The notes under the pieces: generated by a model
Told to the model about the DNA's origin: nothing
Databases searched by the model: none
What the model saw: the letters and a program-made list of their open reading frames with translations, nothing else
Translations under genes and position numbers: made by a program
Source of the DNA: an uncultured bacterium
GTDB lineage: Bacteria > Patescibacteriota > Minisyncoccia > UBA6257 > 2-01-FULL-56-20
Assembly: GCA_963830935.1 (NCBI GenBank)
Contig: CAWHOC010000005.1
Location: 1,839-65,838 of the forward strand
Length of the DNA stretch: 64,000 bases
Direction of reading: 5' to 3'
Shown here: positions 835 through 38,257 of the stretch, in pieces
How the letters are laid out: each line of letters opens with the position of its first letter
Numbering within the stretch: the first letter of the stretch is position 1

Positions 835-1131
835 TTTGCGGAATTTTGAAAAAGAAAATCACTAGCTAGATAACAGAAAGGGCCACGTTTAGTAGACGTG
901 GCCCTCGGATGAGCTCTGAGCGCGGTTCCAATTCCTGGAAAAGGAGTGTCTCGCTTTATGGCAAAAGCGAAAACTTTCGCGCTTGGGCTCTTTTGAACTT
1001 ATGAGTTCTTAAGGTTCAAGAACTACCTATATACTACACCACAGAATGGCGTTGTCAACATCTCCAAAAAACCTTGTAAAACGCTGGCTGGCAGCCCATA
1101 CCGCGACCGCCAGCCGAACATTCTGGCCACC

Positions 1132-1671: not shown

Positions 1672-1859
1672 TTGTCTACCCCCTTTCTACGGAATTGGAA
1701 CTGCGAATATTGTACCATAGATAATTATGCTTGTAAATAGGCCCTCATCAGCGCCCCCTTTACTTTTCTCATAAAATCTGCTATAGTTGTCCATAGTCGC
1801 AGCTTGCAATCAGTGCGGCCTGCAACAAAATTTAATAAGAAAACGGAAGGAGCAGCACC

Positions 1860-6693: not shown

Positions 6694-6705
6694 CTAGAAA
6701 CTCCA

Positions 6706-8961
6706 TTAAAACGTTATATGTCCCGTATAACTTCCCACTGGCTGGGAGGCGGCGTTGATCGTTACCATTTCCGACGCATCATTGCCGGAGTTGTCGTTCG
6801 TCAATCCCGATGCATCAGCCGAAGGAGTAGCGGTGAGCCAACTCGAATCCGACGTTGTGGTCCATGTGAGCGTCGATCCTGGCGCACCCGTGTTACTTAT
6901 CTGCACCTGACCACTGGTGGAACTGCCTTGAGTTGAAGTGAGGGAGAGTGGATTCGTCGAACTCACCGCGATGTTTGCAATCGGGTTCCAAAGGATGGTG
7001 TAATTTACCGCCCCGGCGGCGGTCAGCGTTTGCATGGCAGGTTGCTGCAGAACAAATGCCTCTGCCGTCGAATCAAAGATGCTCTTCGTAAGGGAAAGCA
7101 ATGCATCGATCACCCCTATTTTTTTCTGCGCAATCGGGGTCATCCGCACTGAGTTAAAGGAGTAGAGAGCAGAATCTGCCGGATTATAGAGAGTAATTTT
7201 ATTGGTAAGCATAGTTACGCTGCCATAACTCGACGACGGGGTTGCTGTGTTCACTGCCGGCTGGTTCACATATGTCTGCGAAGAACCATGACACAGCTCA
7301 TTTCCTACCCAATCGCAAACGTCGCCGTCATAGTTCAAAATCGAAGGATCGGTTGCGGGAAGAGGGCCCGAGCCCAGATCCGTTATATCCCATGCTGCAT
7401 TGACCGGACCATTGGTTACGGCGTCCTCGGATGTGACCGTAATGGTACCCGTGGCAACGGTCGTAGAGGTCGGTGTGGTGGTGGCCACATTCCCCACTGT
7501 AATCGACACCGGCATCTGGCTGCCGAACGGATTGCCGGGCCCATCCTCCATCTGCCATGTTTCGGTATACGCCCCTGGCGTCGCCGGGGCGGTAAGAGAG
7601 TTGAGCTTGAACGCCACGCTCTGGCCCGGCTCAACATTCGAGTCTCCCCCTGTCGTCGAGCATTGGATGGAGTTGCCCCATGTGCTGCCGCATCCTGACT
7701 CCCATGTGCCGCCGCATCCGCCGAACTCAGCCGGTCTGCACATGGACTCGGAACAACTTCTTACCGTGCAATATCCGCTCACCGGCGCCTCGCACGACTC
7801 TTGATCGGAGCAGGAGCTGTTGCTGCATGCCTGCGTTGATGATACCGTGCACGTCTGCTGCGAGACCTGGCTGTATTGCGCGGGATTGCTGCCAACGCCG
7901 AATGAACCGGAAACATGCTGTAATTCAAATACGTTGGAATAGTTGCTTAAAGAAACGGTGCACGACGTCCCGACTGCATCGCTCGTCGACGGCTCGGCTC
8001 CGCCGGGTCCGTCACATGTCGACCCCGGCTGCTGCGATCCCGCTATGACGGTTGACTGGTCGGAAGTCCAGGCGCTTGCGCCCGTATTTTTAACCGTGAT
8101 CTCCAGAGGATTGCCATCGGAACCGTTCGTCACGGTCTGGGAAGTGTTGAAGGTAGTGGGGATGTTATTGGATGTTCCTGCGGCATCCAACATATCGTCA
8201 CTCATGTACACCCTCGCGTCATCGGGGTCAAAGGCATTATCACAGTCCTTTGAATGCGCACTCCATATTTGTCCGCTGTCAGTGCTATACGGACTCCCGC
8301 CGACGAATAACGCCCCCATGCTTCCTGGATCATACTCACCGGACGGGATAGATTGACCATATGCGTTCGATATCGGAGCACAAGGTAATCCCCAAATATA
8401 ATTACCGTAGTCCGTTGTGCCCACCAATTGCCCCTGACTATCCTCCGAAATCTCCATCCCGATCTTAAGATTGGTAATGATCACTCCCGCCGGAAGAGGA
8501 TTACCCTTTATGATCGTTATCGAGGCGTTCCCACCGCCCTGCGTCACCATTTCATTGGCGGAACCCGACCACCCCCATTCCGACCAATTGCCGGTATTGC
8601 TAAGGGTGGAAGCGCCGGAAGCGGTCACCTTCCACTGTCCCGTCGCCGCTCCATCGATGCTCTGGCTCGCCAAGGGGGACGTAAAGCAAACATATGGATT
8701 TGTGGTGCCGTTCGAAGAATATATGCACAACTGGATCTGGAAATCGTTCGCGAACGGCCCGTCCGACGGAAGAGTGATATCATATTCGGCTGCTCCCGAT
8801 CCGGAAATTGTTGCGATACTAGGATTCGGGAATTGCTGGACCTGCGCGTGTACGGCGCTCACTCCTGTTCGCGCGAATAGGACGACGGCCACTATCGCGG
8901 CAACCCCGACCACAAATACCGTTACGGCCACCGCATAAAATCTTTTCTTGAAACTTTTCAT
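6706..8961 (-). CDS. large secreted/anchored Cys-rich protein, candidate pilus-associated adhesin
   Basis: 751 aa with N-terminal anchor FYAVAVTVFVVGVAAIVAVVLFA. Cys-rich segment CTVSSTQACSNSSCSDQESCEAPVSGYCTVRSCSESMCRPAEFGGCGG. Segments resembling NBR1-type Ig folds (APATPGAYTETWQMEDGPGNPFGSQMPVSITV). Located directly downstream of the minor pilins. Confidence 0.6.
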   Translation of the reverse strand: MKSFKKRFYAVAVTVFVVGVAAIVAVVLFARTGVSAVHAQVQQFPNPSIATISGSGAAEYDITLPSDGPFANDFQIQLCIYSSNGTTNPYVCFTSPLASQSIDGAATGQWKVTASGASTLSNTGNWSEWGWSGSANEMVTQGGGNASITIIKGNPLPAGVIITNLKIGMEISEDSQGQLVGTTDYGNYIWGLPCAPISNAYGQSIPSGEYDPGSMGALFVGGSPYSTDSGQIWSAHSKDCDNAFDPDDARVYMSDDMLDAAGTSNNIPTTFNTSQTVTNGSDGNPLEITVKNTGASAWTSDQSTVIAGSQQPGSTCDGPGGAEPSTSDAVGTSCTVSLSNYSNVFELQHVSGSFGVGSNPAQYSQVSQQTCTVSSTQACSNSSCSDQESCEAPVSGYCTVRSCSESMCRPAEFGGCGGTWESGCGSTWGNSIQCSTTGGDSNVEPGQSVAFKLNSLTAPATPGAYTETWQMEDGPGNPFGSQMPVSITVGNVATTTPTSTTVATGTITVTSEDAVTNGPVNAAWDITDLGSGPLPATDPSILNYDGDVCDWVGNELCHGSSQTYVNQPAVNTATPSSSYGSVTMLTNKITLYNPADSALYSFNSVRMTPIAQKKIGVIDALLSLTKSIFDSTAEAFVLQQPAMQTLTAAGAVNYTILWNPIANIAVSSTNPLSLTSTQGSSTSGQVQISNTGAPGSTLTWTTTSDSSWLTATPSADASGLTNDNSGNDASEMVTINAASQPVGSYTGHITF

Positions 8962-8965
8962 TTTT

Positions 8966-9421
8966 TTATTTCACTAAATAGGTGATGCCCACGTGCGACC
9001 CTTTGCTCGCTGTGCTGATCACCACCGACAATTGACTATTGCTTTGGGACGCCGAGATGGCGTCGAACGTCGGCCGGGTGGTAAGCGAGCCGGTCACTGT
9101 CCAGCCGTCCCCCGGAAGATACGCCATATATTGTTTGTAGAGCGCGCCGACCGTGCTCGACGAATCATACTCCGCCGTATACTGATTGGTGCTCGTAGAG
9201 TACGCGATGGAATAGCTTCCGCTGATCGCAGCGGCGCTATCGAGGATCAGATCCTTCGGGAATTGCGGGACGAGCTGCCCTTGCGGCGCATAGACGGGCA
9301 CGGGCCCGGTCGCGACCGGAGCTGGTTTTGTTGCCGTCGGCCCCCAAACGAACCACGCTACCACTACGCCCACAACCACCACTATACCGACCCACACCCA
9401 AAGTGTTTTTGGATCTTTCAT
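8966..9421 (-). CDS. N-terminally anchored hypothetical protein
   Basis: 151 aa with a single N-terminal TM (LWVWVGIVVVVGVVVAWFVW). Lies in the pilus operon between the minor pilins and the 751 aa protein. Confidence 0.5.
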   Translation of the reverse strand: MKDPKTLWVWVGIVVVVGVVVAWFVWGPTATKPAPVATGPVPVYAPQGQLVPQFPKDLILDSAAAISGSYSIAYSTSTNQYTAEYDSSSTVGALYKQYMAYLPGDGWTVTGSLTTRPTFDAISASQSNSQLSVVISTASKGSHVGITYLVK

Positions 9422-9492
9422 ACCTTAATAGTAGCAGATACGGGGAAATGTGGGGGTGTGGATAATCCGGGCCGCCGCGGAGCGCAGGCGCG

Positions 9493-10158
9493 TCAACACC
9501 CGTAGGGGGTGACGGTGGTGTCGCAGTCTATGATGCGGGAGGATACCGTGGTCTGGAGGTAGATGGTGTCACTCGCAACGCCCGGGTCGGTAGAGCTCGG
9601 CGCAACGCCGATCACAATGGTGACGCGCGGCGGCGTATGGTCGTCTTCCACCTGCCCATACAGATAAAATTTCAGATATTTTACCGTGATATCGCCGCCG
9701 GTGATGGAGAGGGCGCCGTTCGTAAGTTGTGTCGAACTTTCTATGAGCGCACCCGCGAGCGGACCGGTCGAGGTCGTCTCATACAGAACGTGATTCAAAT
9801 CTGCATCATAGAAATCCAACCCGCTACACGTCCACATTCCGGCGGGTGCGGTTGATGTAGAGATGACACACCCGCAGTCCGGAAGCGCGTTGCCGGCGGC
9901 ATTGCCACGAGGCGTGCCCACGCCCCAGTCGGTGACGGGCGGATTGGCCGCGTGGCAAAAAAGATATCCGGTGCGAATCTCGCGCGACATCTGCTCGAGC
10001 ACCAAGCTCACGTTGCTCTGTGCGGAGATAAGCAAAGAAACCTGGCGCTCCGTTCGCACGGCGTTCGTAAATCCTCCCACCGCGATCGTGATAATGATGA
10101 CGAACAGGCCGACGGTGATCAGCAACTCGACGAGGGTAAATCCTTTTTTCATGATCAT
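9493..10158 (-). CDS. prepilin-type minor pilin (PilW/PulJ-like)
   Basis: N-terminal KKG/FTLVELLITVGLFVII prepilin cleavage-methylation motif. 4-nt overlap with the upstream pilin gene. Confidence 0.75.
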   Translation of the reverse strand: MIMKKGFTLVELLITVGLFVIIITIAVGGFTNAVRTERQVSLLISAQSNVSLVLEQMSREIRTGYLFCHAANPPVTDWGVGTPRGNAAGNALPDCGCVISTSTAPAGMWTCSGLDFYDADLNHVLYETTSTGPLAGALIESSTQLTNGALSITGGDITVKYLKFYLYGQVEDDHTPPRVTIVIGVAPSSTDPGVASDTIYLQTTVSSRIIDCDTTVTPYGC

Positions 10159-10838: not shown

Positions 10839-11416
10839 TCAGTGGTGCGGAGATACACGTTCGCCTCCTGCGGCGGATTCGTTCCCGCCCGGATCGCAAA
10901 TGCTTTGGAAGTCCGTCCCGTCAGTGCTCACGAGCGTGCACGGGTCGGGAGGATAGAACATGATGTATTGGATAGTAGCGCTCGCAACCGGGTCAGTAGA
11001 GCTCACGAGCACAACACCTTGTTGGGTCGCCACCTGCCAGCTTCCGGACTGATATTTTTGTATCGAGTTCGGGTCGATCGCTTGTGACGTGCTCGCGATG
11101 GAAGGGCAGATCGGCTTCGTCCCGAGGGCACGGTGCTCGTCGCGGAATCGTATGCAAACAGCGAGTACGAGGAGGTTGTGAAATCGAAACTGACCCCGTA
11201 TGCGCACGTGGTATCGTTCTGGCTGTACGTCGCGATGGAAAGCTCCCTCGCCTCAAGAATAAGCTGAGCTATCTTTGATTCCTCTATGGAAAGCGCTATC
11301 TGGTTCTGCCCCACATGGCTGTAGACGATGGCGAGCGTGGAGAGCACCGCCGTGATGGCGGCCACGATGAGTATCTCTATCAGCGTAAATCCTTTTTTAT
11401 TTGCTTTATCCGCCAT
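10839..11416 (-). CDS. prepilin-type minor pilin (FimT/GspH-like); frame broken near 11130
   Basis: N-terminus MADKANKKG/FTLIEILIVAAITAV. ORF 11003..11416 loses sense after about residue 95. The plausible C-terminus is in ORF 10839..11207. Confidence 0.65.
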
Positions 11417-11467
11417 AGGAGTATTCTATCATTTCCCCGGCACTTCCGCGGCACTTCCGCGGCGCGT

Positions 11468-12277
11468 TCACCGAATGCCGAGGATGGAAAAATACCAGCC
11501 GAGGATCGGTACACCCCAGAAGAACATCGCCGCGGCGCCGAGCGCGAGGAACGGCCCGAACGGCAAGGAGCTTCTCATACTGCTCTTGCCGCGCGCGATC
11601 GCGAAGACGCCGACCACGGCACCGATGATGAACGAGAATGCCAGCACAAAAATGATGTCGGGCCAGCCAAAGAGGAGCCCGAGCGGGATCGCAAGCTTAA
11701 GATCGCCCATGCCCATGCCTTTGCCGCGCGTGACAGCGATGAGGAGCGCGAAGAAAATGCCGGCGACCGCGCCGCCGATCAACGTGCTAAGCACCACACT
11801 TCCCTGCCAGCCGGGAACGATCGCGAGGAGGACACCGGCCACGGCGAGAAAGATATTGATCTCGTCCGGGATAATGCCCATCCTGATGTCTATCACGGAC
11901 ATCACGAGCAATGCCTCAAAGATGGCGACCCAGAGGGTTGCTTCGAGCGCAGGCGAAGTAGCCGTTGATGCTCCGGCAAACACTGCGAGCGGCACGAACA
12001 CAAAAATAAGACCGGATAATAGCTCCACGATCGGATACTGGATGTTCAGCCGCGCCTTGCACTCGCGGCACCGACCGCCTTGGATAAGAAAGCTCGCGAT
12101 CGGTATAAGCTCGAACCATTGCAGCGTCCTTTTGCAATGCATGCAATGCGACCGGCCGCCGATCGCCTTTGCGTCGAACAAAAAATGTTCGCCGTCATAG
12201 CGCAGCGTGACCACATTCAGAAAACTTCCGATCGCGACGCCAAAGACGAACAAAATAGCCAAGGCCAGCGGATCCAT
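11468..12277 (-). CDS. pilD: prepilin peptidase (A24 family)
   Basis: CMHC...CRECK zinc motif, GMGMGDLKL active-site region, polytopic membrane protein. Confidence 0.9.
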   Translation of the reverse strand: MDPLALAILFVFGVAIGSFLNVVTLRYDGEHFLFDAKAIGGRSHCMHCKRTLQWFELIPIASFLIQGGRCRECKARLNIQYPIVELLSGLIFVFVPLAVFAGASTATSPALEATLWVAIFEALLVMSVIDIRMGIIPDEINIFLAVAGVLLAIVPGWQGSVVLSTLIGGAVAGIFFALLIAVTRGKGMGMGDLKLAIPLGLLFGWPDIIFVLAFSFIIGAVVGVFAIARGKSSMRSSLPFGPFLALGAAAMFFWGVPILGWYFSILGIR

Positions 12278-26393: not shown

Positions 26394-27408
26394 CTATTGC
26401 ACGCCTTCAGCCTGCTGATACGCCGCAGCCGAGATGTCCGCGATCGCCTTTTCCTGCGCCGCGATGCTCGTGGTCCCCTTCGTCATTACGCACAACAGGT
26501 AGGGATGCGCCGGGGGCATAGACGATCCGCAATCGTGCAGTTCCCACTGGTACGGCACACCATTCGAAAGATACGAAGCCAAGCCATATTTATGCGCCAC
26601 CGCCGTGGAGCTCGGTACGCCAGCCACGATCCCCTGCGTGAAGGTCGTCTGCGTCAACAGCGCGAGCGCTTTTTCCGAATCATCGCGTGAGAGGTATGTG
26701 GCATTGTAAAGAGTCTTGAACAGGATGGCGTATTGCTGTGGCGTCATGATATCGCTCGTTGAAGCCGTCACGTCGGGGTCGGTCGGAATATCGAGATCGG
26801 AATACACTGCTTGCACTCCTTGTTGCTCGGCCGGGGTCGCAAGCGTGGTGAGCACGTCCGCCGCGTCGTTGTCGGAATATTTGATCATGTACTCGATGAG
26901 TTGCTCGTTCGTATATTCCTGGCCGGGCGTGATACTGCTCGTCGGCGGGATTTCCTGTTGGGTATTGAGATTGGGACTTTCCGCCGGATAGCTATTTTCT
27001 TCCTCTAAAATACTGCTCGTGTTCTCGGCCATCGCGTAATACGCCATCATGATCGGCACCTTCCCCAGGCTCGACGGATAATATTTTTCATCGCCGTTTA
27101 TGCTCGCCCATTGTCCGGTCGTAAAATCGGAAAAATAAACCGACGCGTCAGTGATATCCCCCGCGCTCTTGTCTTGCGAGATCGCCGACTGTATTGCATT
27201 GCAACGGACTGATCCTGAGAAACGTCTTCACACTGCCCAGATTACAACTTATGAGCGGGCTGATGTACTGATATCCCCCAAGCCGCAGCGGCGGCGGGAT
27301 GGTGATGACGGTGGTTACCTTGTTAAGCAGCCACCCGAGACCAAAGCTCCCCGCGCAGGCGAGGATCGCAATAGCCCAATACACTCGTGTTCTGTTCGAT
27401 CTTCCCAT
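26394..27408 (-). CDS. class-A beta-lactamase-like serine hydrolase; frame broken near 27150
   Basis: SxxK (SLGK, just upstream of ORF 26394..27059), SDN (YSDND) and K-Y-G triads. N-terminal TM in ORF 27148..27408. Confidence 0.65.
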
Positions 27409-27472
27409 CCTTCTATATTACTAAATACGCCTCGAGTACGCATCTTGGTGCCTACTTACCCTTTCCAGCCCG

Positions 27473-27537
27473 AAAGAAAAATCATCGTATTCGCCGAATG
27501 GTCATCTGCCCGGAGGCGAATACGATGATTTTTCTTT
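27473..27537. other. hairpin H3: 23-bp perfect arms, 19-nt loop GAATGGTCATCTGCCCGGA
   Basis: AAAGAAAAATCATCGTATTCGCC pairs with GGCGAATACGATGATTTTTCTTT. Same loop module as H2. Confidence 0.75.
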
Positions 27538-27657
27538 GTTGGTGCCCTTCCAACGTCTCCAACTTGAAGGGACGCGCCCCGAGCGAGACCCCACAAGCAT
27601 TCTTGAGAGATTTCGGGGATCCCCTTTCCCCTTCCTTTGGAGGAACCTCGATCACTA

Positions 27658-28268
27658 GGCTACGGGAATGTATGGAGGAGATTTTAGGAGATAGTTCGAG
27701 CGCCGGAAGGACCTCGGTCGCTGTATAAAGCCTTCGGCAAAAACCCAAACAATGCCAAATTTTAGCCGTCGCGACAATGGGTCAAATCGGACAAATCGGA
27801 CACTCCAAGGCCATTTCGGACACCTGTCCGAAATGCAACATGCAACAAATGTAACGCTACGTACGATTTTAAGAAAATGATGTTTTTAGGAAACCGCCTT
27901 CTCGGATGGCTTGAAAAATAAGGGACTTTAGAGATTTTGGAATGTAACGTTCCAAATGCAACGCCAAAAATGTTACAAATGTTACACTGGTTCGGCATAT
28001 AACATTTTGGCACAAATGCACACGGCATAGGCTATTTTTAGTGTGCCATCTTCTATGCCGCGCGAACCTAACAAACGGGACAAAATGGGACACTTTTTAG
28101 GGTGTCCCATTTGGCAAAGAGGCGTGTCTCATTCTGAAAAATTGATGCCCGTAAAATAAGGCTTTTTTGATCAAATGAGACAAATGAGACACAAAACGGG
28201 TGTCTCACGGGAACGCCTCATTTATTTACCTCGGCCTCCCCTAAAATTAGAACTGGGTTCCCGTAGCC
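27658..28268. repeat. AT-rich non-coding array of degenerate tandem 9-mers (AAATNNNAC x2 + AC) bounded by imperfect inverted repeats
   Basis: IR blocks GGCTACGGGAA...ATTTTAGG at 27658-27688 and their reverse complement at 28240-28268. Tandem pairs lie at 27784-27803 (CGG), 27968-27987 (GTT), 28073-28093 (GGG) and 28173-28192 (GAG), with looser versions at 27831-27856 and 28008-28023. Most have a nearby inverted copy. Confidence 0.8.
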
Positions 28269-28303
28269 CCTCTTCCAGTATTGGTACTTTATAATGAAAA
28301 TAC

Positions 28304-28938
28304 ATGCTCGATGTTAACATTGGAGTTATTGTTATCGCCATCACCGCACTCGGATATGTAAGCAATTTTCTGAACTGGCGATTTTTGGATTATGCCCCGA
28401 TCCGTGCACTGTATTACGTTGGCGCCCTCGTGCACGAGACATCGCACGCCATCGCATGCATTCTGACCGGTGCACGGATCGAACAATTTACGGTTTTTTC
28501 AAACCAGCCGCAAGTCGTCCACCGCAAATCACGCCTGCCGATCCTGGGGGAACTCATCATCTCCGCCGCGCCGATTGCCGGAGGGCTACTCTTTTTATTT
28601 TTAGTGAACCGTTATGCGCTGGGTACTATTTTACGGTCCCATCATTCGGTGCGGTTTATGGATGGAAAATATTCCTTCTTGTCCCGTTTGGACTGCTGTC
28701 GCAAATCAATCTGCTTCAATGGCAAAGCTGGGTGATGATCTTTCTATCATTTAACTCTGGAGCTATGCTCGGTCCGTCAATGCAAGACCTGAAGAACGTC
28801 TGGCCTATGCTTATAGTGTTGCTTTTTTTCCAATCTCCGACAATTACTGAATTCGGGGCTGCCACGATAATTATGATCATCGTGAACATAATGATCCAGG
28901 CTATTGCCATAATCGGCGTGCAAATAACGAAACATTGA
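28304..28938 (+). CDS. polytopic membrane HExxH metalloprotease-like protein (M50B-like); frame broken near 28620
   Basis: HETSHA motif inside a TM region. ORFs 28304..28735 and 28456..28938 join. TATAAT lies 8 nt before the ATG. Confidence 0.5.
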
Positions 28939-29002
28939 TAGGGAATAAAAATTTGACAACAAATAGATATATTAATATAATATCACATAGAGGTGATGTA
29001 TC

Positions 29003-29359
29003 ATGAAATGGTTCGTGTTGTTCGCTGGGATCGTTCTTTTATCGCCTCCGACTGCCGACAGTCAGCCCGTCGATAGTCCGTGCGCAGGGAAAGCGGGCAT
29101 TGAATCTATTCCGCCCGAAATTCGGAAAGAGTTTCGGCAGGCACAGATGGACCGGGATCTCCAAGAGTCGATTCGAAAAGAAATTGAGATCGCCAACCGA
29201 CCCAGATCAGGCCTGAAGCTTACGATGGCCACGACTGACAGGGATGGAAGAATCGTTGACTATCGAATCATCGTGGCTTCCGCTCCGGGGTGCGTACTAG
29301 GGTGGATGCCTATCAATCCACCTGCAAACGCCAAACAACGGAGTCGTGTGTACTACTGA
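29003..29359 (+). CDS. small secreted hypothetical protein
   Basis: Signal peptide MKWFVLFAGIVLLSPPTADS. AGAGGTGA Shine-Dalgarno. Confidence 0.5.
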   Translation: MKWFVLFAGIVLLSPPTADSQPVDSPCAGKAGIESIPPEIRKEFRQAQMDRDLQESIRKEIEIANRPRSGLKLTMATTDRDGRIVDYRIIVASAPGCVLGWMPINPPANAKQRSRVYY

Positions 29360-29436
29360 TACCTTTCATATATCACTTTGGAAGGTATCTTTTTTATGTC
29401 TTATAACAACACTATGCGCGTCGCGCTATTGACCGC

Positions 29437-32400
29437 TCACAGCGACTTTAAGAGTGTGCCAAGTTCGTCGAATAACCCCTCAAGCGAACGGGATATAATC
29501 GCTGTTTGATCAACCGATTCCGCAGACGACGATCGGCTATTCGCGGCGAGCGACGAACCCGGGACGCTGACTGCGGATGTGCTATCATCACCGCCGCAGC
29601 TCGGATCCTGCGGGTAGAAATCGCAATAATCAGAGCAGTCAGGGGTTGGATCAATATCGCATGCATCCGTTGAATTCGAAGCGCCGCTGCACACGGGATC
29701 TTGTGCATTCAGCGAACAATAATCCTGGCATGCGGTGCCGGAGGGATCGCTCGCGCAGGAAGTGCTCGTCGCACACGTCGGATCGTCGGGAGTTTGATTA
29801 CAATAATCTTCTTCGATGTTGGCGGGTGCGTCCGGACACACTGGATTGTTTGGGTATAAGTTACAATCTACGATACAACTTCCATCCGCCCCCTGTATCA
29901 GGCCGGCGCCGCATGTTCCCTGGCACGCGCCTGTTGGCATCGCGAGCGAGCTGCCGTCCGGATTGACGCAGCTTACCGTACCGTCGCTCCCACACGAACA
30001 ATCGCTTCCATCGGGGTAGGTACACTGCATTACTCCTTGGGCATTCGGAGTGCATGTCTGATTTGTCGCCGACGGGCATTCCGGGCTCGCAACCGGATCG
30101 TCGGGGTTGCACTCGTCTGTCGGGGGAGGAGGCGGGGTTATTGGAGCATAAGTTTCGGGAGCGGAGCGTACATTTATATGGACTCCCGTTTGCGTCCAGA
30201 CATGTGCCTTGGGGAACGGTTACCGGACAGGAATACTGACCGCTTTGCCCGCAATTCACCGGCGCACAGGTATAATTATTTCCATAGTTGTCGGTACAAT
30301 AACCAGGAGTCGTGCCGTCGTTAGTCGGAGTATAATTGTCCACAATTGTTGCAGATGTCGTCGCATTCGGCATCCTGCACCCGCCGAGCGCCGTCGGATC
30401 GTTGATCCAACCACTATCAAGCTCGTCCGCCGTGCACTGTCCGACGATACTCCAAGTGTTATCCATGAAGACAACAGGGGCAGTCCCGGAAGGAGGATAC
30501 CATGGACTCGTGGCAAGAGGAGCTCCGGTCCCGACGCAACCAACGGAAGAAAGTGGAAGAGCCTGCTTCTGCTGGATCGCCTTTATAGTATTGTAAATAT
30601 TCTGAGCAATGGGGATCGGACCGTTGTTTCCTCCTCCTTGCATGGGTGAGTTTGTATTGCCATAGTCATCCCCGAGACCGAATATGCCATGACCCAACTC
30701 GTGTTCATCCGTACCTGCAGCGTTCAAGCTCGTAAGGGCTGCTCCCGTTGGCCAAAACTGTGTATTGAACATATCAACAACCACAGATTTGCCAGCGTTC
30801 AAAGCGTTCACGATTGCCGAAGCGGTTCCCGCAGGAACGTATTGGGAATAGCCGGAGTAGCCGGATTGAGCGATAGTGGTGGATAGATATACCGTCTGCG
30901 CGGCGAATTCATCCTGCTCGCTTACCGATACCCCATTCACTATGGTGTTGTTTTGTCCATCCGGTATGTTTCCTGCGCTCAGCACGACGAGTGCTCCGGC
31001 ATCCGAATTGTCTGTTGGTACCGGCAGCACCCCAGCTGTGTCGGCCTGATAATAGGGAGAAAGTCCATTGATGACGACGTTGATTATTTCATCCTGAGCG
31101 GCTTCGGGAGTGGTCGATCCCCAATTGATATTGTTGGGATTCGTCATTGAAGGATCCACGATGATATTGAAATCGGTCGATATGTGAGGAATGGTACCGT
31201 CGGGGCTAACCAAGACGGGGATTGCAATTCCTGCGGCGGATCCCGTGGTGCCAGGGGCTTGCACGGAGCACTGGCCGCCGTTGTTCGCCGGTGCTCCGGT
31301 CACCGCCTGGTCCGCAAGGCCGAAGTAGATTGCGACTTTTCCATTTTCAGACGCCATTCCAGAAATCTCGCCGAGCGCGTCAGTGGTCTCGGTAATCTGA
31401 TATCCGGCTTGCCCTAAAGCGTTTGCAATATAGTTTATAAACTGGATCGGGGTATTCCCACCAAGCACGTTCACCAAAGTACCATCCACACCAGCGGCAA
31501 TCGATGATTGGTGATATGGCGCAGTAGCAAGAAGCGACGATGGATTGTACGCGACCACCGCGTAATTTGACCCAGTAGTATATGATGTGTCAGTAAAGCT
31601 CGTAGCAGAGGTCGTGGCAATTTGTGTACCGTCACGATACACCTGATAAAGAATTTCATTCCCCGGATCTGCGTAGGTCTCTGTCAATGGATTCGCGGAA
31701 GCGGTCCATGAAAGCGACATTTTTGACGACCCGACGTTCGTGATGGTGAAATCTCCCGGAGGGGTGGGGCCGCCCCATGTGGAGCTGGTAATAGTCACTT
31801 GCAATTGCGGGGATACAAGGCCAACCACTCCGACTGCATTCACTGGCGCGACGCAGTAATAATACGTGCCTAAAGGAACGTTGACATCGGCATAGCCGTC
31901 AAGGACGTGGCCAACATCGTTGGGCACACCCGTCATAACAAGATCTGCGGGAGTCGCAGCGCACCCCGAAGTCGTGGTCCGATACAGATTCCATGTCAGA
32001 GACTGATATTGTTCATCCGTACTCTCATACCAATTCATTTCCGCAGAATCCCCTACCGTTATCGCATAAAGATTCGAGACGGGAACGACGGTTTCCGGGT
32101 TCGAAAAAGCGCTACCGGTGATCTGAGAGGCCCACGGGAGAACCGAAAGATATCCATCAATGATTTGGTAGAGTGGCATATTTTCGGTGTTCGCATCGTA
32201 AGGAACAATATAGCTTGGCAAAACAGAACCAGTGTAGGTCGTTGTGGCTACAACTCCGATTTCTGCCGGTTGCAGCAACCCATTAACGTAGGTGGATGAG
32301 CCAAAAATTTCGTACCCAAGGATGCCTGATGCATCGACGGAAGGGCTCCATGTGAGAGTGATGCTTGAGAGAGTATTATTCGTTTCCTCGATATTGCCGA

Positions 32401-33052
32401 TGAGCGATGGGGTGTTGCCGACAGTGGTGATGGTCGCCTCTATGGGTGCGGTAACAGGGCCGTAATAGGGGGACGTCCCTTGATCCAGCGCGTCGGCACA
32501 ATAATAGTAAGTACCCGGAGAGAGATTTTTGTCAGACAACATAGGATAATCGTCCTTAGGGAACCATGATCCCACAGAGACCGAGCTCACACTGCAGTCC
32601 GGGGAAAGAGATCTATAAAATATATATGTTAAATTAGTTCCATTGAGACCGTTCAAGGGCGCAGACTCACCAGTCGAAAAGCTTACGGTATTACCGGAAA
32701 CCGAAATGGAAAATCCGGTTACCGGACCAGGCGCTGGATAGGCGGATGCGGTGATAGGGAGCGACTCGGATGACGCCCCTGCGGAATTGTAGGCGACGAC
32801 ATAATAGACATACGGCACAGCTTCCTGCTGACCATTGCCGCCAGGAAGAGGCTGATATTCCTCAAGCCCAGTGTCCGTGAACGACGTCTGCGTGGTAGTG
32901 CTCACTTCGACGTTATCTCGATAGACGCCGTAATATGTCGCGGAGATACTGCTCGTGGACACTTGCCATGTGAGGGAAATCGACGAAGCGGTACCTCCAA
33001 CAGCCTGAAGATTTATCGGAGGTAATAATGAAGAAGAAATAAGTGGCGTCAA
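29437..33052 (-). CDS. giant surface protein: FN3 repeats, M64-like HExxH metallopeptidase motif and a Cys-rich C-terminus; frame broken near 30020
   Basis: Several FN3-like units (SSISLTWQ...YGVYRD..., MSLSWTAS...YQVYRDG). DEHELGHGIFGLGDDYG resembles the HEFGHxxxGLxDEY motif of peptidase M64. The C-terminal ORF 29437..30030 is rich in CxxxDP motifs. No signal peptide on the 33052 TTG start. Confidence 0.65.
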
Positions 33053-33127
33053 CGAGATCGGTTTAAGCGGCGATCGTGTAATCGGTCCACTTGCAACTAC
33101 TCAGTGCTTCCGACAGCGTAGGAGATT

Positions 33128-34648
33128 TTAAAAGAGGGCATGCTCTGATAATGAGGGTTTGTAGTTTAGTATTAAGTGAAACAAGGAGGGCTTCCTCCTG
33201 TGAGACACTCGCTCGTACTGGCAGAAGTGGTAGAGGGCGGAGATGATCGTCGTGGTGCTTGCCGCCGGCGTAGTTGTGGCGCTAGAAGCATTCACGATCG
33301 CCGAAGCGCTGTCGCTCCCACCCGCTCCTGAACAGGTGATCGTATATGTTGATGTTCCTACCGATGCAGCGATCTGCGTTGATTCCCCCGAGAGCGGCTG
33401 TTCTCCGGACCATGCTCCCGATGCCGTGCACGCGGTGGCATTTTGTGAAGACCACTCGAGAACCACGGAGGCGGACGTGGAATTAGTTATCAAGGACGCG
33501 GCCCCGCCAATGGTGACTGTCGGGGCAGGCGTCGTCGTGGAAGTGGACGCGGATGCAATCGTTACCACCACTTGCGCCGAAGGGATGCCGATGATGGTAC
33601 CGCTGGTGCTCACTGCCGCGACCACATAGTAGTACGTGCCCGGAGCGAGACCTGTATTGGTGTAGAATGTCCCGCCCACCACCGATGCGACGCTGTTGTT
33701 CGTAGCATTCGGGGTAAACCCTGAGGTCGTGCTGCGATATACGTTGTATCCCCACATGCCGGTTGGGGTATATGCGGTCCAGGAGAGAATCGCCGAGGTT
33801 CCGCTCGCGACCGCCGTCAGATTTAGTTCTTGGGTGGAAGAAATATTTTCGGAAACGGGTGTCGACGAAGCAGATCCGGAGAGAGTGTAAGAAACCACAT
33901 TGCTTGTACCGTTGGCGTTCTCTATGGAGATATTCTGAGCTGAAGTAGCGCCCGGGACGGAGGGCATTGTGAAACTCAGACTGGTACCTCCGTCGCTGCT
34001 CGGCACCTCGGGGACTGTGACGTATGTCCCCTGCCCGCTACTACCGGCACCTATATTGATTTGATTGGAACTCGTAAAGTTCAACCCTGCTACCGTGACC
34101 GTGGCTCCCGCTATACCGCTCGCGGGGACGATGCCCATGATTTCGGGAACAGTGCTTGCGATATCAAGCACGCTTACCGTCACCGACGCCGGGTTACTCG
34201 TGCCACCGGGACCAGAACAGGTAACCGTATAGGTGTATGACCCAATCCCTGCCGGACTCTCAAAAAGGGATCCACTCGCAGCAAGGGAATCGCTACCCAA
34301 GGAATCTGAGGCAGTACACGCCGTCGCGTTGGCACTGGTCCACGTGATCGTCGCCGCCTGACCGAGAGGAATGATCTGTGGACTGGCGGATATGCTCGCG
34401 GTGGGAACGGCGGGGGGGGTTATATTGCAAACCGTTTCGCTACACCCATCAGGTTCGATGACACTATGACCACCATAGGGACAAACGGGCACTACTAATG
34501 GGCAGGCAGGTGCAAAAGTGCCGCTGGGAGCAATCTCGGCGATTATCGCCCGTGCGGGAGGGACGGGGAAAAATGTATATCCTATAAGGAACAATAAAAA
34601 CACGCTGGCGACCGAGAGTAAAAATATATGGAACCTCTTCATGCTCAT
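33128..34648 (-). CDS. secreted surface protein with IPT/TIG and FN3 domains
   Basis: Signal peptide FHIFLLSVASVFLLFLIGY. IPT-like IMGIVPASGIAGATVTVAGLNF. FN3-like ILSWTAYTPTGMWGYNVYRST...GTYYYVVAAV. The last about 40 residues look out of frame, so it may continue into 29437..33052. Confidence 0.65.
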   Translation of the reverse strand: MSMKRFHIFLLSVASVFLLFLIGYTFFPVPPARAIIAEIAPSGTFAPACPLVVPVCPYGGHSVIEPDGCSETVCNITPPAVPTASISASPQIIPLGQAATITWTSANATACTASDSLGSDSLAASGSLFESPAGIGSYTYTVTCSGPGGTSNPASVTVSVLDIASTVPEIMGIVPASGIAGATVTVAGLNFTSSNQINIGAGSSGQGTYVTVPEVPSSDGGTSLSFTMPSVPGATSAQNISIENANGTSNVVSYTLSGSASSTPVSENISSTQELNLTAVASGTSAILSWTAYTPTGMWGYNVYRSTTSGFTPNATNNSVASVVGGTFYTNTGLAPGTYYYVVAAVSTSGTIIGIPSAQVVVTIASASTSTTTPAPTVTIGGAASLITNSTSASVVLEWSSQNATACTASGAWSGEQPLSGESTQIAASVGTSTYTITCSGAGGSDSASAIVNASSATTTPAASTTTIISALYHFCQYERVSHRRKPSLFHLILNYKPSLSEHALF

Positions 34649-34716
34649 GCCATTGTGCGGAGCTTCTTATAGAATCCCCACTATTAAATCTATAGTAACA
34701 CGTTAAGCATAGATTA

Positions 34717-34725
34717 GGGGGGGGG
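34717..34725. repeat. G9/C9 homopolymer in the divergent intergenic region
   Basis: GGGGGGGGG lies about 70 nt upstream of the surface-protein ATG (34648). On that strand it reads TTGCCCCCCCCC. Confidence 0.9.
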
Positions 34726-34822
34726 CAACACTCTGTCCTTGCCTTCTTCGCCCCTTCGTCGCATTGTAGCGACCAGCAAGGACGCTCTGGACTCGTCCCA
34801 CCGTTGCGTCATCAATTGTAGT

Positions 34823-36159
34823 ATGACCAACCAAATTAAGGGGTCGGCAGGAGCGGCGACCTCAACCAATCAACCGCTGCCGGTAAAGGTCGCATATTGC
34901 TTGTATGCAAGAAAATCAACGGAATCAGAGGAGCAGCAAGTCCTTTCGATAGACAGCCAGATCAAGGAGATGATCCAGATCGCCGAGCGGGATGGGCTCA
35001 CGATCGCGGAGATCCGGAAGGAATCCCATTCAGCAAAAGCCGTCGGCCAGCGCGAGGTGTTCAATGAGCTCCTGAAAGACATCCGCTCCGGCAAATTCAA
35101 CGGCATCCTCACCTGGGCACCGGATCGCTTTCGAGAAATGCTGGTGACCTCGGAGCTCGTGGACCTCATGGATCAGAAGGCGCTCGTGGAGATACGGACC
35201 TTCTCCCAGAAATTCACCAACAACCCAAGCGAGAAATTCATGCTGATGATCCTGTGCTCTACGGCAAAACTGGAAAATGACAACAAGTCGGAAAATGTGA
35301 AGCGGGGCCTCCGGACGCGGTGCGAACAAGGGTTCGCCCCAGCATGGCCCCGACTGGATATCTGAACGAGAAGCGAAAGGACAAACCGTGCGAAGTGATC
35401 GTTGATCCGCAGCGAGCGCCCGTGATCAAGCAGATGTTCGAGAAGGTGGCGAACGAGCAATGGTCGGGGCGGAAGCTCTACGCATGGCTGCGGCACGATG
35501 TGAAATTCAAGACCGCCACGGAAAAATTCCTTGCGCTCGGAAATATCTATATGCTTCTCAAAAAGACTTTCTACTATGGCGTCTTTGAATACCCGGTCGG
35601 ATCGGGAAACTGGTACACGGGGCAACATACGCCCATCATCACAAAAGAGCTATATGACCGAGTGCAGGAACAACTCGTCCGGAGCGAGATAAATAAGAAC
35701 AATAAGGAGTTCGCCTTTACGAAGCTCATATCATGCGGGGTCTGCGGATCGGGCGTCACGGCGTGCGAGAAGTACAAAGACCAGCAGAACGGAGACGTGC
35801 ATCGCTACGTATACTACCGCTGCACGAAAGCGAAAGATCCTCACTGTCCAGAGGGGTATATCAAGGAGGAAGAAATCATCGAACAGATCCTGAAGATCCT
35901 TGATACGCTCGACATCAGCGAACTCGGCATCAGGCAGAAATTCAAGGATGAGATATCGCGATACAACAAATTCCGAAGGATCGCTCTGGGCAAGAGCCGG
36001 GAGAAATCTGACCCAGAGGAATTCGATGCCAAATCGTATGCCGTCTATCTCCTGACCGAAGGATCGATTGCAGAAAAGCGTGAGCTGCTATCCAACCTTA
36101 AGAGCAGACTGATCCTCAAGGATAGAGTGGTCACGATAGAAGCCGGAGCGGAAAAATAA
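34823..36159 (+). pseudogene. large serine recombinase, decayed
   Basis: Resolvase N-domain YARKSTESEEQQVLSIDSQ. The recombinase/zinc-ribbon part lies in ORF 35320..36159, with a frame break near 35335. The expected DRLSRNAGDLGA motif is only readable in an alternative frame across about 35124-35160; the in-frame text is DRFREMLVTSE. Confidence 0.7.
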
Positions 36160-36179
36160 ATACTATCGTTCCTCACCAG

Positions 36180-36795
36180 CTATTCTTTAACACTGAACGT
36201 TGCAGGTAAAATTCCACCGTTCCGCCAGGCTTCTCCGAGAGATAAATATTGATGGCCAAAATCTTCACCAGCTTTGGTGGTATGCATGAGTTGGGCTGTG
36301 TACTTTACTGAAAACGTATCCGATGGGATTATGTCCTGATGAATCCTGATCAGCAAATACAGATCGGCCATTTCTACTGAAGAATATAGCTCTTCATAAT
36401 CCTGCAAGAACATGGCCATATCCATACCGTCGGTCATGTCGAAGCTCACAAAGACGACGAGCGTAGGGAGGCCTTGATGATTGGCTAATTGAGACATCGC
36501 CTTACCGTGATGCCTCTCTAGTTTGCTTCTGTGATTTCGGTCCCTCTTTTTTGAAATTGCTGCAAGTTCCTCATATGAGATCTCCGGATTATACGTCGGC
36601 ACATTTGCGTCAACGCAGTGATTTGACCTCACATATGGCGATGACCTCCCCGGCACTATTCAGGACCTCATAGTCGGGCGTCCTTGTATCCTTAACTTCC
36701 AACACTTTCTTGAGTGTCAGAGCATACCAACGCTCGAGCACAATTTTGATTGCCTTTTCACCAAGCTCACTTTGATATTGTTCGAGTTTCTCCAT
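36180..36795 (-). CDS. PD-(D/E)xK nuclease-fold protein; frame broken near 36620
   Basis: PDYEVLNSAGEVIAICEVKS carries the PD...E-x-K signature. ORFs 36610..36864 and 36180..36656 join. Confidence 0.5.
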
Positions 36796-36897
36796 ATGGA
36801 GAATATTCTTCCTCCGAACTTCCGCCCTTGCAAGGCGGGTTGCCCGATCGCCTGCGCGGGTCATGGACCAACGTCCCTTGAACCGCGCCCTGACTTG

Positions 36898-36969
36898 TGC
36901 CCCCGCGAAGAATCGAACTTCGATTACAAGATCCGCAATCTTGCGTCCTATCCGTTGAACGACGAGGGC
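36898..36969 (-). tRNA. tRNA-Arg (anticodon GCG)
   Basis: Manual cloverleaf: acceptor GCCCTCG/CGGGGGC (one G-U), D-arm GTTC-AACGGATA-GGAC, anticodon arm CAAGA-TTGCGGA-TCTTG, T-arm CGAAG-TTCGATT-CTTCG, discriminator A. No encoded CCA. Confidence 0.85.
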
Positions 36970-37562: not shown

Positions 37563-38099
37563 CTATTCTTTTCTGAATCCCATCAGTGGCTTATCGTCTT
37601 CCTCCGGCGGTGGCCCCATCAGCTGTTTTAGAACCTCAAACACGATTTTAAATTTTTTATCGTAATTCTTTTCCATTTCCATCACCTTTTCCGCCAGCTC
37701 CTTATTACTGGCCAATAATTGGCGCAAACGGACGAACGTCCGTATGATAGCGATGTTCACCGCCACCGCGCGATCGCTCCGCAGGACACTTGATAACATT
37801 GCCACGCCCTGCTCGGTAAAAGCATAGGGCATATATTTGATGTTTTCGCCTTGCTTCAAGGTCGCAATTTGCGACCTTGAATGGAAAATTTTAGCCTCTT
37901 CCACGCTTAACTGAAACATAAAATCATCAGGGAATCGCTCTTAATTCCTTTTTACCGCTTCATTGAGCCGTTTGGTTGGTACGCGATACAATTCCGCCAA
38001 ATCATAATCTGTCATGACCTTGCGCCCTCTTATTATAAATATCCGCCGCTCGATGATATCAAGCGGAATCACCATATTCTCATCTTTTAAATTTTCCAT
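37563..38099 (-). pseudogene. ORF6N (KilA-N-like) domain protein with an in-frame TAA at codon 53
   Basis: [70 protein letters not shown]... is continuous in one frame. The TAA is at 37941-37943. Confidence 0.75.
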
Positions 38100-38135
38100 A
38101 ACCGGATTATTACACGACCCACATTAAATCATTCT

Positions 38136-38189
38136 AAAACTTGAAGTCACAGATTGTGACTTCAAGTTTTTTGAGATCGCACATTGCGA
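38136..38189. promoter_or_regulatory. two palindromes upstream of ORF6N, related to a palindrome inside its CDS
   Basis: 38136-38170 is AAAACTTGAAGTCACA-gat-TGTGACTTCAAGTTTT. 38177-38189 is TCGCA-cat-TGCGA. The CDS palindrome TTCAAGGTCGCAA-t-TTGCGACCTTGAA is at 37855-37881. Confidence 0.5.
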
Positions 38190-38232
38190 CCCCAAACACG
38201 CCTCACCCCCACATCTGCGTACGCCCCAACAC

Positions 38233-38257
38233 AAAAACGACCGCCTCACGCGGTCGT
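38233..38257 (-). terminator. rho-independent terminator of the HU gene
   Basis: The minus strand reads ACGACCGC-gtga-GGCGGTCGT followed by TTTTT. Confidence 0.8.

Follow-up and report, generated by a model that had tools for sequence, protein, structure and literature searches.

A conserved noncoding repeat array on a serine recombinase island of a candidate-phyla-radiation bacterium: possible recognition sites for helper phages

We analyzed a 64,000-nt stretch of contig CAWHOC010000005.1 (hereafter, the window) from an uncultured bacterium whose genome is of the Paceibacterota type; the window has a GC content of 54.6% and encodes, among other host proteins, pilM, comF, thyX, and dcd. It carries an integrative element of 9.36 kb (positions 27542 to 36902; hereafter, the island), inserted by a large serine recombinase (LSR). 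The recombinase gene occupies the tRNA-proximal end of the island, and a noncoding array of short repeats, the subject of this report, occupies the opposite (attL) end. A first-pass annotation had described this array as a set of tandem words with varying central triplets, bounded by inverted repeats, and had likened it to a bank of related but nonidentical protein-binding sites of a mobile element. We found that the array is real, has strong statistical support, and has been conserved in evolution as a cis-element of an uncharacterized island family; units of the same grammar lie at small-terminase genes of viral contigs, and the array may thus be read as a row of sites for helper phages. The features of the locus and of the related loci are collected in Table 1.

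The island has two marks of an LSR-moved integrative element, namely, recombinase domains inside the element and a precise empty site with a repeated core. A genome scan with the neighboring beta-lactamase-like protein as the query gave three relatives (L236 to L238). Two of these Paceibacterota relatives, L236 and L237, lack the island: blastn synteny breaks at window position 27452 and restarts at 36897, with the two window ends contiguous in L236 and nearly contiguous in L237. In L236, the empty-site sequence is GCATCTTG-GTGCCCCCGCG, in which host DNA runs straight into the 3′ end of tRNA-Arg(GCG), and the insertion point of the island is the last 6 nt of this gene. The motif CTTGAAGGGACG at 27563 to 27574 mirrors CGTCCCTTGAAC at 36872 to 36883, and these arm motifs lie 13 to 15 nt from their respective cores. 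The recombinase reading frame matches PF00239 on 34739 to 35365 and PF07508 plus PF13408 on 35320 to 36159, and its C-terminal 279 aa are 86% identical to an intact 447-aa protein (P0003). More than 4,000 homologues of the recombinase were found; where an organism name was given among the best 120, it was mostly one of Patescibacteria or Parcubacteria. In all five relatives that we checked, the recombinase gene stops just over 100 nt short of the 3′ end of a tRNA-Arg or tRNA-Lys gene.

The array forms a conserved noncoding arm composed of the P′ half-site of the recombinase, a leader of ~200 nt with short repeats of its own, five clear modules, and one looser GCA/GTA group. In each clear module, a word AAAT-NNN-ACAC that is specific to the module appears twice in direct tandem orientation and once or twice inverted. 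Specifically, segment 27543 to 28235 holds 8 exact tandem 9-mers, 8 inverted 9-mers (loop, ≤40 nt), and 9 words of the AAATNNNACA/TGTNNNATTT type, and none of 1,000 dinucleotide-preserving shuffles of this segment attained these counts (means of 0.004, 0.14, and 0.20, respectively). The double word AAATNNNAC-AAATNNNACAC is exact at 27784 (CGG), 27968 (GTT), and 28173 (GAG), with a two-mismatch copy at 27838; at up to two mismatches, all 4 matches in the 64 kb fall inside the array region, compared with 0.39 expected. Only 3 AAATNNNACA/TGTNNNATTT words occur in the remaining 63 kb of the window, and the words are at chance level elsewhere across 352 kb of related loci. The array is also AT rich, with 41% to 47% GC versus 55% for the window. 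The words of the first-pass annotation were thus all recovered at their positions, both by reading the sequence and with a repeat finder, and the shuffled controls that it had named as a check speak for it. Its view that the region is noncoding was borne out as well, as the two open reading frames predicted there contain 1-nt and 7-nt indels in the alignment of the window with L302, an orthologous island at the same host locus.

The boundaries of the unit, on the other hand, had to be redrawn. The 11-nt terminal inverted repeat (27658 to 27668 and 28258 to 28268) is present and perfect, and a second, inner pair was also found, but the outer repeat is lineage specific, being absent from the orthologues L302 and L283. 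Because of this, and because homology to L302 runs from the core to ~28223, we take the conserved unit to span 27542 to ~28224, so that it begins 116 nt to the left of the start reported earlier. As a separate observation, the strings CCCGTAGC/GCTACGGG of the window terminal repeat (28258 to 28268) recur downstream of the array in L290 (~726 to 746) as a 9-bp hairpin, CCCCGTAGC-TCT-GCTACGGGG, and a weaker hairpin of the same string is seen in L287 (~705 to 722); this recurrence may be due to chance.

Table 1. Features of the window around the repeat array, followed by the module content of arrays in related islands and by the viral loci (DR1 and DR2, first and second direct copies of the module word)
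Feature	Coordinates	Strand	Remarks
Older att scar CTTGGTGCC	27444..27452	+	In the empty site of L236, runs directly into the tRNA-Arg 3′ end
Perfect 23-bp hairpin, then T-rich tail	27473..27537	.	Native B-arm DNA beside the tRNA, outside the island
attL core GTGCCC	27542..27547	+	Copy of the last 6 nt of tRNA-Arg; homology to the orthologous island L302 begins exactly here
P′ arm of the recombinase site	27548..27575	+	Carries CTTGAAGGGACG
Leader	27576..27783	+	G(A/G)GATTTY direct repeats at 27605-27619 and 27677-27691; (G)ACCTCG(A/G)TC motifs at 27642-27659 and 27709-27723
Terminal inverted repeat, left arm GGCTACGGGAA	27658..27668	+	Inside the leader; not conserved in L302 or L283
CGG module	27784..27834	+	DR1 27784-27792, DR2 27793-27803 (AAATCGGAC AAATCGGACAC); conserved in L302 and L283
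Looser GCA/GTA group	27835..27963	+	Words 27835-27856; palindrome TTTGGAATGT-A-ACGTTCCAAA 27936-27956
GTT module	27968..28008	+	DR1 27968-27976, DR2 27977-27987, partial partner TAACATTTT 28000-28008
GGC module	28005..28049	+	TTTTGGCAC AAATGCACAC 28005-28023, 17-nt spacer GGCATAGGCTATTTTTA, GTGTGCCAT 28041-28049
GGG module	28073..28112	+	Irregular AAACGGGAC-A-AAATGGGACAC 28073-28093, loop TTTTTAGG, GTGTCCCATTT 28102-28112
GAG module	28124..28224	+	Inverted word GTGTCTCATT 28124-28133, spacer 28134-28172, DR1-DR2 28173-28192, loop AAAACGG, GTGTCTCAC 28200-28208, CCTCATTTA 28216-28224
Terminal inverted repeat, right arm TTCCCGTAGCC	28258..28268	+	Past the end of the L302 homology
Island cargo	28304..34648	.	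M50B-like peptidase (split over two frames), 118-aa small protein, Cys-rich protein, fn3-type surface proteins of 1,063 and 506 aa
Motif upstream of the recombinase gene	34785..34827	+	CTGGACTC...TTGCGTCATC...TAGTATGAC, conserved ahead of this recombinase gene family
Large serine recombinase gene	34823..36159	+	Resolvase, Recombinase, and Zn-ribbon domains; one frameshift near 35320-35365
P arm and attR core GTGCCC (36897-36902)	36871..36902	+	Overlaps the tRNA-Arg 3′ end
tRNA-Arg(GCG)	36897..36969	-	Integration target
Array in L302			CGG, GCA, GTT/GTG, GGC, GGA, GGG, GAG; orthologue at the same host locus
Array in L286			CTG, CGG, GTT, GAG
Array in L287 and L288			GGC, GGC, GTT, GAG; one element, different left flanks
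Array in L290			GGA, GTT, GAG
Array in L292			GTT, GGG, GAG
Array in L300			GGA, TAG, GAG
Array in L303			AAG, GTT, GAG, CTG, GTA, GGG
Array in L283			CGG and GAG modules just inside attL; 9.6-kb island
Array in L305 to L314			GGA, GTT, GAG; array 5.7 kb upstream of the recombinase gene
Array in L326 to L328			Only GAG modules; intact P-core-P′ junction at the left end
Array in L315 to L317			Leader and one degenerate module
Array in L341			Leader and one GTT module
Viral loci with AAATNNNACACTATAAAAAAG			L005, L058, L086, and L121 to L235; e.g., L125 at oriented position 9544 and L129 at position 6874

The modules of the window differ in their regularity. In the CGG module, a third word and the inverted word form a perfect palindrome, ATTTCGGACAC-C-TGTCCGAAAT, at 27813 to 27834, and the arms of the GGG module are likewise perfect (11 bp with an 8-nt loop, 28083 to 28112). 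The words of the looser group exchange T and C between the window and L302. The window copy of the GGC module is short of one G, since the orthologue L302 reads AAATGGCACAC. The spacer of the GAG module is 100% conserved between the window and L302. Overall, the array of the window shares 79% identity with that of L302 (blastn), compared with 69.5% to 71% for the flanking host genes.

Many independent islands of the family carry the same arm, on the strand of the recombinase gene. When metagenomes were scanned for two double words 160 to 190 nt apart (28 specified bases), 20 loci were returned; 9 of these, representing 8 distinct elements, are arrays with differing words, and the other 11 are single-word or irregular arrays such as satellites. 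Further islands were found by fetching the contigs of recombinase homologues. The layout of att core, leader, and modules recurs in at least 10 independent elements, and the architecture is kept across elements ranging from 31% to 53% GC. The leader that precedes the modules has direct repeats of the form G(N)GATTTY as well as a motif CTCGGTC(G)GGG. The strand of the array equals that of the recombinase gene in every case showing both. Wherever a contig is long enough to tell, the array lies at the end distal to the LSR; it is either separated from the recombinase gene by cargo or placed directly upstream of it (L287, L288, L290, and L292). In L326 to L328, the array would come after the recombinase gene, across attP, in a circular or tandem form. 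No array was seen in L282 or L284 within the 10 kb fetched, where the islands may be longer. Apart from the arm, the recombinase is the only protein common to the array-bearing islands, and the arm is therefore probably a cis-element on which the spread or control of these islands depends.

Several observations were made alongside these comparisons. The final 140 nt of the recombinase region plus the P arm of L326 are duplicated at its left end (2785 to 2925 versus 11330 to 11470) and joined there to the P′ arm, and this intact attP-like junction hints at either a second copy, tandem or partly deleted, or an assembly of the circular form. A second element (536 to 3884) stands in tandem at the same core, adjoining the array-bearing island, in L306, L308, L310, and L311; it encodes a ParB_N-methyltransferase fusion, a small-terminase-like protein, and a shorter serine recombinase. 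Satellite-like 9-mer tandem arrays of kilobase length (AAATGAGAC, AAATGTCAC) occur in L289, L291, and L298 (GAG), in L285 and L294 (GTC), and in L304 (GAA). Neither a leader nor a recombinase was seen in L289, L291, L298, L285, or L294, and L289 contains (AT)n tracts; the arrays of these five loci are probably a different kind of repeat, possibly eukaryotic.

Module statistics were drawn from 25 modules of 11 elements. A module reads DR1 (AAATnnnAC), DR2 (AAATnnnACAC), loop, and inverted copy (GTGTnnnATTT), often with a second inverted or an upstream copy. The loops fall into two length classes, 7 to 9 nt (e.g., TATAAAAGG, TTTTTAGG, and AAAACGG) and 17 to 20 nt, which are separated by approximately one helical turn; long loops give the impression of a short loop extended by a degenerate first inverted copy. 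Stem positions 5 to 7 differ among modules and yet are Watson-Crick paired in 22 to 25 of the 25. The triplet of DR1 equals that of DR2 in 21 of the 25 modules, an agreement for which a plain hairpin has no need. The GTT module differs jointly between the window and L302 in DR2 (GTT to GTG) and in the inverted copy (AAC to CAC), with DR1 kept as GTT. A GAG module is recognizable in 11 of the 13 array-bearing elements counted and is the final module in nine; the order of modules recurs, with GTT ahead of GAG.

Units of the same kind were found in viral contigs. Small-terminase genes of two Pfam families have same-word tandem units within ~200 nt upstream or in their first codons, with inverted partners in only some of these units. 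A 21-nt motif, AAATNNNACACTATAAAAAAG (18 specified bases), is present in more than 120 IMG/VR viral contigs, a lower bound, and is single per locus except in L203, a contig with a long internal repeat. In the eight contigs read closely, it sits just ahead of, or within the 5′ part of, a small-terminase-like gene, whose product matches Pfam HTH_Tnp_1_2 and, weakly, the Sf6 terminase. Among the 121 matches listed, 22 have an exact duplicate 9-mer ahead of the motif, and near-duplicates were seen by eye in many others; in the viral scan with the double word, the triplets are equal in 12 of the 121 matches listed versus ~2 expected. Because AAATNNNACACTATAAAAAAG occurs in two reading frames and in a noncoding context, the constraint acts on the DNA. 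The motif is a candidate signal for packaging or for the late operon in a large group of uncultured phages, apparently of the Bacteroidota type. As for the second family, Terminase_2 genes (L334/L340 and L336) are preceded at 42 to 175 nt by GTT modules that have three direct copies and up to three inverted ones. Homologues of the first small-terminase family are encoded in the LSR elements L265, L315 to L317, L203, and L341, and in L306, one is encoded in the element adjoining the array-bearing island; the terminase-like protein of L306 has 209 aa and that of L315 has 148 aa. The terminase-bearing LSR elements L315 and L341 have the same leader and one module, compared with two to six modules in the terminase-less islands. 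The viral contigs yielded no match to the terminal-inverted-repeat pattern or to the two-module pattern, and only a few plain hairpins to the short-loop hairpin pattern. By blastn, the array region gave nothing relevant among annotated phages and plasmids, and nothing was found for the module regions of L005, L240, and L243 against phages; the two flanking proteins have no exact-sequence match on record.

The array could specify a structured noncoding or long leader RNA of serial hairpins, acting as a protein sponge, as processing sites, or as a retro-regulator of the recombinase mRNA. Such an RNA would account for the fixed orientation relative to the recombinase gene, for the covariation of the arm triplets among modules (with the one compensatory change in the GTT module), and for folding that is better than that of shuffled sequences, although both strands fold about equally well (z = −4.1 for the plus strand and −7.2 for the minus strand), and better-than-shuffle folding is expected for any set of inverted repeats. 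The stems hold almost no G:T pairs (2 of 275, compared with 26 other mismatches), and DR1, an unpaired duplicate of the stem sequence, is superfluous for an RNA hairpin. With Rfam 15, only two tRNAs matched in the window at the gathering threshold, nothing below an E-value of 1 was obtained in 27400 to 28400 at permissive settings, and the arrays of 7 related loci had no match (8 arrays in all); no consensus RNA structure was predicted for the leader, and no sigma-70-like site was found in 27300 to 28500, where 1.6 would be expected. An intrinsic terminator lies between the recombinase gene and attP in the four related islands read (L282, L283, L284, and L326), which makes read-through into the array unlikely. 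For these reasons, we consider the RNA explanation improbable and infer that the words are double-stranded DNA recognition sites, with cruciforms or single-stranded hairpins as a lesser alternative. The reader could be the serine recombinase of the island itself, with the array serving as accessory sites for direction control or autoregulation, as in the res sites of Tn3 and gamma-delta; the array always adjoins the P′ half-site, minimal elements place it between attL and the recombinase gene, and the recombinase is the sole shared protein. The words presumably also resemble resolvase half-sites of the TGTCYNNTA type (gamma-delta res), and res subsites have varied spacing. We nevertheless regard this explanation as decidedly improbable. 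The words are unlike the recombinase half-sites (P, P′, B, and B′ in attP, attL, and attR) of the elements compared; a Pfam search of the recombinase returned Resolvase, Recombinase, and Zn-ribbon domains and no HTH_7, the resolvase-type C-terminal helix-turn-helix; and the same modules occur upstream of terminase genes in contigs without such a recombinase by tblastn. Since the only shared protein is thus a poor candidate and the words, at chance level elsewhere, serve no host regulon, the simplest remaining option is that they are read by proteins supplied in trans, which would come from another mobile element.

Two further explanations also treat the array as DNA. It could be a transcriptional hub, as the first-pass annotation had proposed in its multi-operator version, in which each module would be a regulated promoter or operator, with NNNACA of DR1 as a −35-like element, an AT-rich −10-like element in the spacer, and the inverted word over the start, so that repressors or activators would govern expression of the island or the recombinase. 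A hexamer TAnnnT or cAnnnT indeed follows NNNACA by 17 to 18 nt in the GAG modules of L286, L243, and L287, the GTT module of L305, and the GGC module of the window, and a TAnnnT-like hexamer is suitably spaced in about half of the long-loop modules of other elements. The module of L243 is followed by a ribosome-binding site and ATG, the array of L287, L290, and L292 lies directly upstream of the recombinase gene, and the phage copies stand at the head of the late (terminase) operon, the expected place of a late promoter. The hub remains a live rival, but it is weakened by the lack of sigma-70-like sites in 27300 to 28500, by the short-loop modules (including GGG and GAG of the window), which are too tight for a −10 element, and by the recombinase gene, which is preceded by a conserved motif of its own and, in the four related islands read, is followed by a terminator ahead of attP. 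Moreover, the array-adjacent cargo gene is often on the opposite strand, the islands have no regulator gene in common, and the words are at chance level elsewhere in 352 kb; on balance, we think the hub unlikely. Somewhat more unlikely in our view are replication sites, i.e., single-stranded hairpins, cruciforms, or iterons that would provide priming or origin signals for a helper primase-helicase copying the excised circle. In L240, the interval from an SSB-like gene to a Prim-Pol/DUF3987 helicase gene contains at least 10 GTT words, oriented both ways; the helicase has a weak C-terminal resolvase-type helix-turn-helix match. The nearly pure Watson-Crick stems, the fixed orientation, and the AT richness would also suit such a role. 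This link rests on one contig and the terminase link on many, no rep, primase, or helicase gene was found in the window island or in most array-bearing islands, and the origin-like switch in GC skew that the first-pass annotation had suggested looking for is absent. Finally, the perfect terminal inverted repeat with its inner pair, in an AT-rich and noncoding region, could mark a miniature inverted-repeat transposable element or functionless, decaying repeat debris. This explanation is largely refuted, and we give it hardly any weight: the outer repeat is absent from the orthologues, the array is single copy in the 64 kb and absent from viral contigs, its architecture is kept over elements of widely different GC content, and it is more conserved than the adjoining coding genes.

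Other candidates were tried and rejected. A plasmid or phage iteron origin, expected to consist of one iteron of 17 to 22 bp, does not agree with words of 9 to 11 bp in at least five types, and the absence of rep and par genes from the island speaks against iterons and a partition site (parS/parC), both considered in the first-pass annotation; only some related elements encode ParB_N-methylase fusions. Repeats that differ between modules, tandem 9-mers, and the absence of a cas gene or a tyrosine integrase from the window island do not fit a CRISPR or integron attC array. The string ACACTATA of T7/SP6/K11-type promoters is shared with some modules, but it occurs once per phage locus, its spacing is 1 to 2 nt shorter, and the modules of the window lack TATA. 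A mimic of the tRNA anticodon loop (U-NNN-A) was dismissed as the triplet is paired inside stems, DNA uptake sequences as the words are at chance level elsewhere in related DNA, and lambda sib-type retro-regulation as the recombinase gene has a terminator of its own ahead of attP in the four related islands read. Neither a DnaA box nor dif/Xer sites nor a sigma-54 promoter agrees in spacing or sequence.

Our preferred reading, which we hold tentatively, is that the array is a DNA-level bank of recognition sites for helper phages, either pac-like or for late activation. Pac sites and late promoters are located at the head of the terminase operon. Each module would copy a cis-site kept by a phage or a terminase-carrying relative at this position, and this site would serve either to initiate packaging (pac-like), with the small terminase binding to it, or to activate the late operon. 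An island that lacks a terminase and carries several differing words could then be recognized by more than one helper, and since the sites point into the island body, helpers would start packaging there or switch the island on. The location expected of a pac-like site, in or beside a small-terminase gene, is seen for the phage copies but not in the window, whose island has no terminase gene; terminase-bearing LSR relatives have the leader and one module. In a stronger form, which we consider possible but rather doubtful, the array would be a master key, in which five or six terminase-leader sites each copy that of a different helper, so that any of several phages could package or switch on an island encoding no terminase, capsid, or regulator.

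Several points weigh against the helper-site reading. The step from a shared grammar upstream of small-terminase genes to recognition by the terminase or a late activator is an inference, and most of the copies in small-terminase-gene leaders, found with the TATAAAAAAG pattern, have no nearby inverted partner. In one phage class, the triplets CCG, CGG, CTG, and CAG vary at the wobble base of a Ser codon. The motif-bearing viral contigs resemble AT-rich phages of the Bacteroidota type and not known phages of the candidate phyla radiation, and the GTT words of L240 form an iteron-like cluster upstream of a Prim-Pol/DUF3987 primase-helicase and not of a terminase. A simple set of independent helper sites does not predict the recurring order of modules (GTT before GAG and GAG last in 9 of 11), the identity of the array above that of the host genes could reflect recent transfer rather than selection, and the two related islands without an array in the fetched DNA (L282 and L284) also count here.

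In light of these results, the first-pass view of a bank of related, nonidentical protein-binding sites appears to be the best reading, at the level of DNA, and its assignment to a mobile element is now specified as the attL-proximal arm of the LSR island. The search of related genomes and phages for the word grammar, which it had recommended, uncovered the arrays of related islands and the units at small-terminase leaders. The proteins that it had named as possible binders, HU and ORF6N, are encoded outside the island, beyond the tRNA gene, and have no relation to it; when the small open reading frames of the island were searched against PHROGs and Pfam, no DNA-binding protein was returned. 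Its statement that no such element has been described also stands: the array belongs to no Rfam family, and a full-text literature search with CACTATAAAAA and GTCCGAAAT, and on serine recombinases of Patescibacteria, returned nothing relevant. The row of modules with different words on minimal candidate-phyla-radiation islands and the link to terminase-gene leaders are the new features, in a group of bacteria whose mobile elements are nearly uncharted. If the modules are helper-recognition sites, they would explain how minimal islands without transfer genes move between cells of episymbiotic bacteria, and one element would hedge over several helper specificities. The word grammar also provides candidate recognition sites of two small-terminase families in many uncultured phages. 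In addition, the recombinase and its putative att sites (core GTGCCC in a tRNA 3′ end and an attP of ~60 bp) are defined well enough for trial as an integration tool.

With respect to the remaining content of the locus, the small proteins of the island cargo look secreted. Three genes within 10 kb are each split by one frameshift, namely, those for the beta-lactamase-like protein (26394 to 27408), the M50B-like peptidase (28304 to 28938), and the recombinase (34823 to 36159); these frameshifts, together with the missing G in one array word, look like homopolymer indel errors of a long-read assembly, with real decay as the alternative. The recombinase-upstream motif, in the form CTGGACTC...TTGCGTCATC(A/C)nTTGT...ATGAC, precedes every recombinase gene of the family (L282, L283, L284, L305 at ~9900 to 10000, L287 at 650 to 690, and L326 at 3285 to 3315), and L326 has an extra copy immediately behind the array, which gives the impression that cargo was inserted between the array and the promoter region of the recombinase gene. 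Cargo across islands of the recombinase family (L282 to L284, L305, L315, L329, L332, and L243) includes type I restriction-modification, CBASS (SMODS plus SAVED) with a LexA-like peptidase, a diversity-generating retroelement (reverse transcriptase plus bAvd), AAA_5/VWA proteins, very large beta-helix or fn3 surface proteins, and Fic-like proteins, the last recognized by eye.

The tRNA-Arg(GCG) locus itself is variable among the relatives. L237 has a 31-nt filler between two core copies (9555 to 9585) where L236 is empty, and L238 has a 3.4-kb insert (6203 to 9677) with a gene for a 1,071-aa surface protein and no recombinase; a hairpin of the same kind as that beside the window island abuts the tRNA-Arg gene of L238. 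Given the old scar and the island in the window, the filler in L237, and the insert in L238, the 3′ end of tRNA-Arg(GCG) is a hot spot at which insertion has recurred. Just beyond the tRNA gene, there is another, small variable spot, where a stretch with an ORF6N (anti-repressor-like) gene (37563 to 38233) could not be aligned to L237 or L238.

Comparison with known systems, drawn from general knowledge, suggests that the array most resembles in its working the recognition sites that phage satellites copy from their helpers. Like pac and cos sites and their copies in SaPI/PICI and P4 satellites, the viral units consist of short words that are repeated beside or within the 5′ part of a small-terminase gene, and as in satellites of the SaPI/PICI and P4 types, an integrative island without structural genes carries a site that a helper could recognize. 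The position at one end, the fixed direction, and the existence of island relatives with their own small- and large-terminase genes also recall SaPI/PICI-type satellites. Unlike in these, several modules with differing words stand side by side, which to our knowledge is undescribed for phage satellites; the integrase is an LSR acting on a tRNA 3′ end, the host is a candidate-phyla-radiation bacterium, and the window island lacks the usual satellite genes (repressor, primase, and capsid-size factors).

The likeness to other systems is more partial. The res sites of Tn3, gamma-delta, and Sin are similarly clusters of short helix-turn-helix half-sites, inverted and direct and with varied spacing, beside a serine recombinase gene and a crossover site, and their words share the shape TGT-NNN-A/T-rich. 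By contrast, the LSR of the island has no resolvase helix-turn-helix, the array words differ from the att half-sites, the triplet is uniform within a module and differs between modules, and the array can lie 6 to 7 kb from the recombinase gene. The FRT site of Flp and the Fur box are alike in geometry only, with two adjacent direct copies, a short spacer (7 to 9 nt in the short-loop modules), and one inverted copy; the island has neither a tyrosine recombinase nor a Fur-like regulator, and it has several word types and a second loop class of 17 to 20 nt. Rolling-circle and CRESS (geminivirus) origins and plasmid iterons also combine lineage-specific words, two direct and one inverted, beside a hairpin, and in these origins, the identity of the word matches the specificity of a trans-acting protein, a usage that the iteron-like GTT words near the primase-helicase of viral contig L240 recall. 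They differ from the array in that the islands have no Rep or initiator gene, the words themselves form the arms of the hairpin, and each island combines several specificities.

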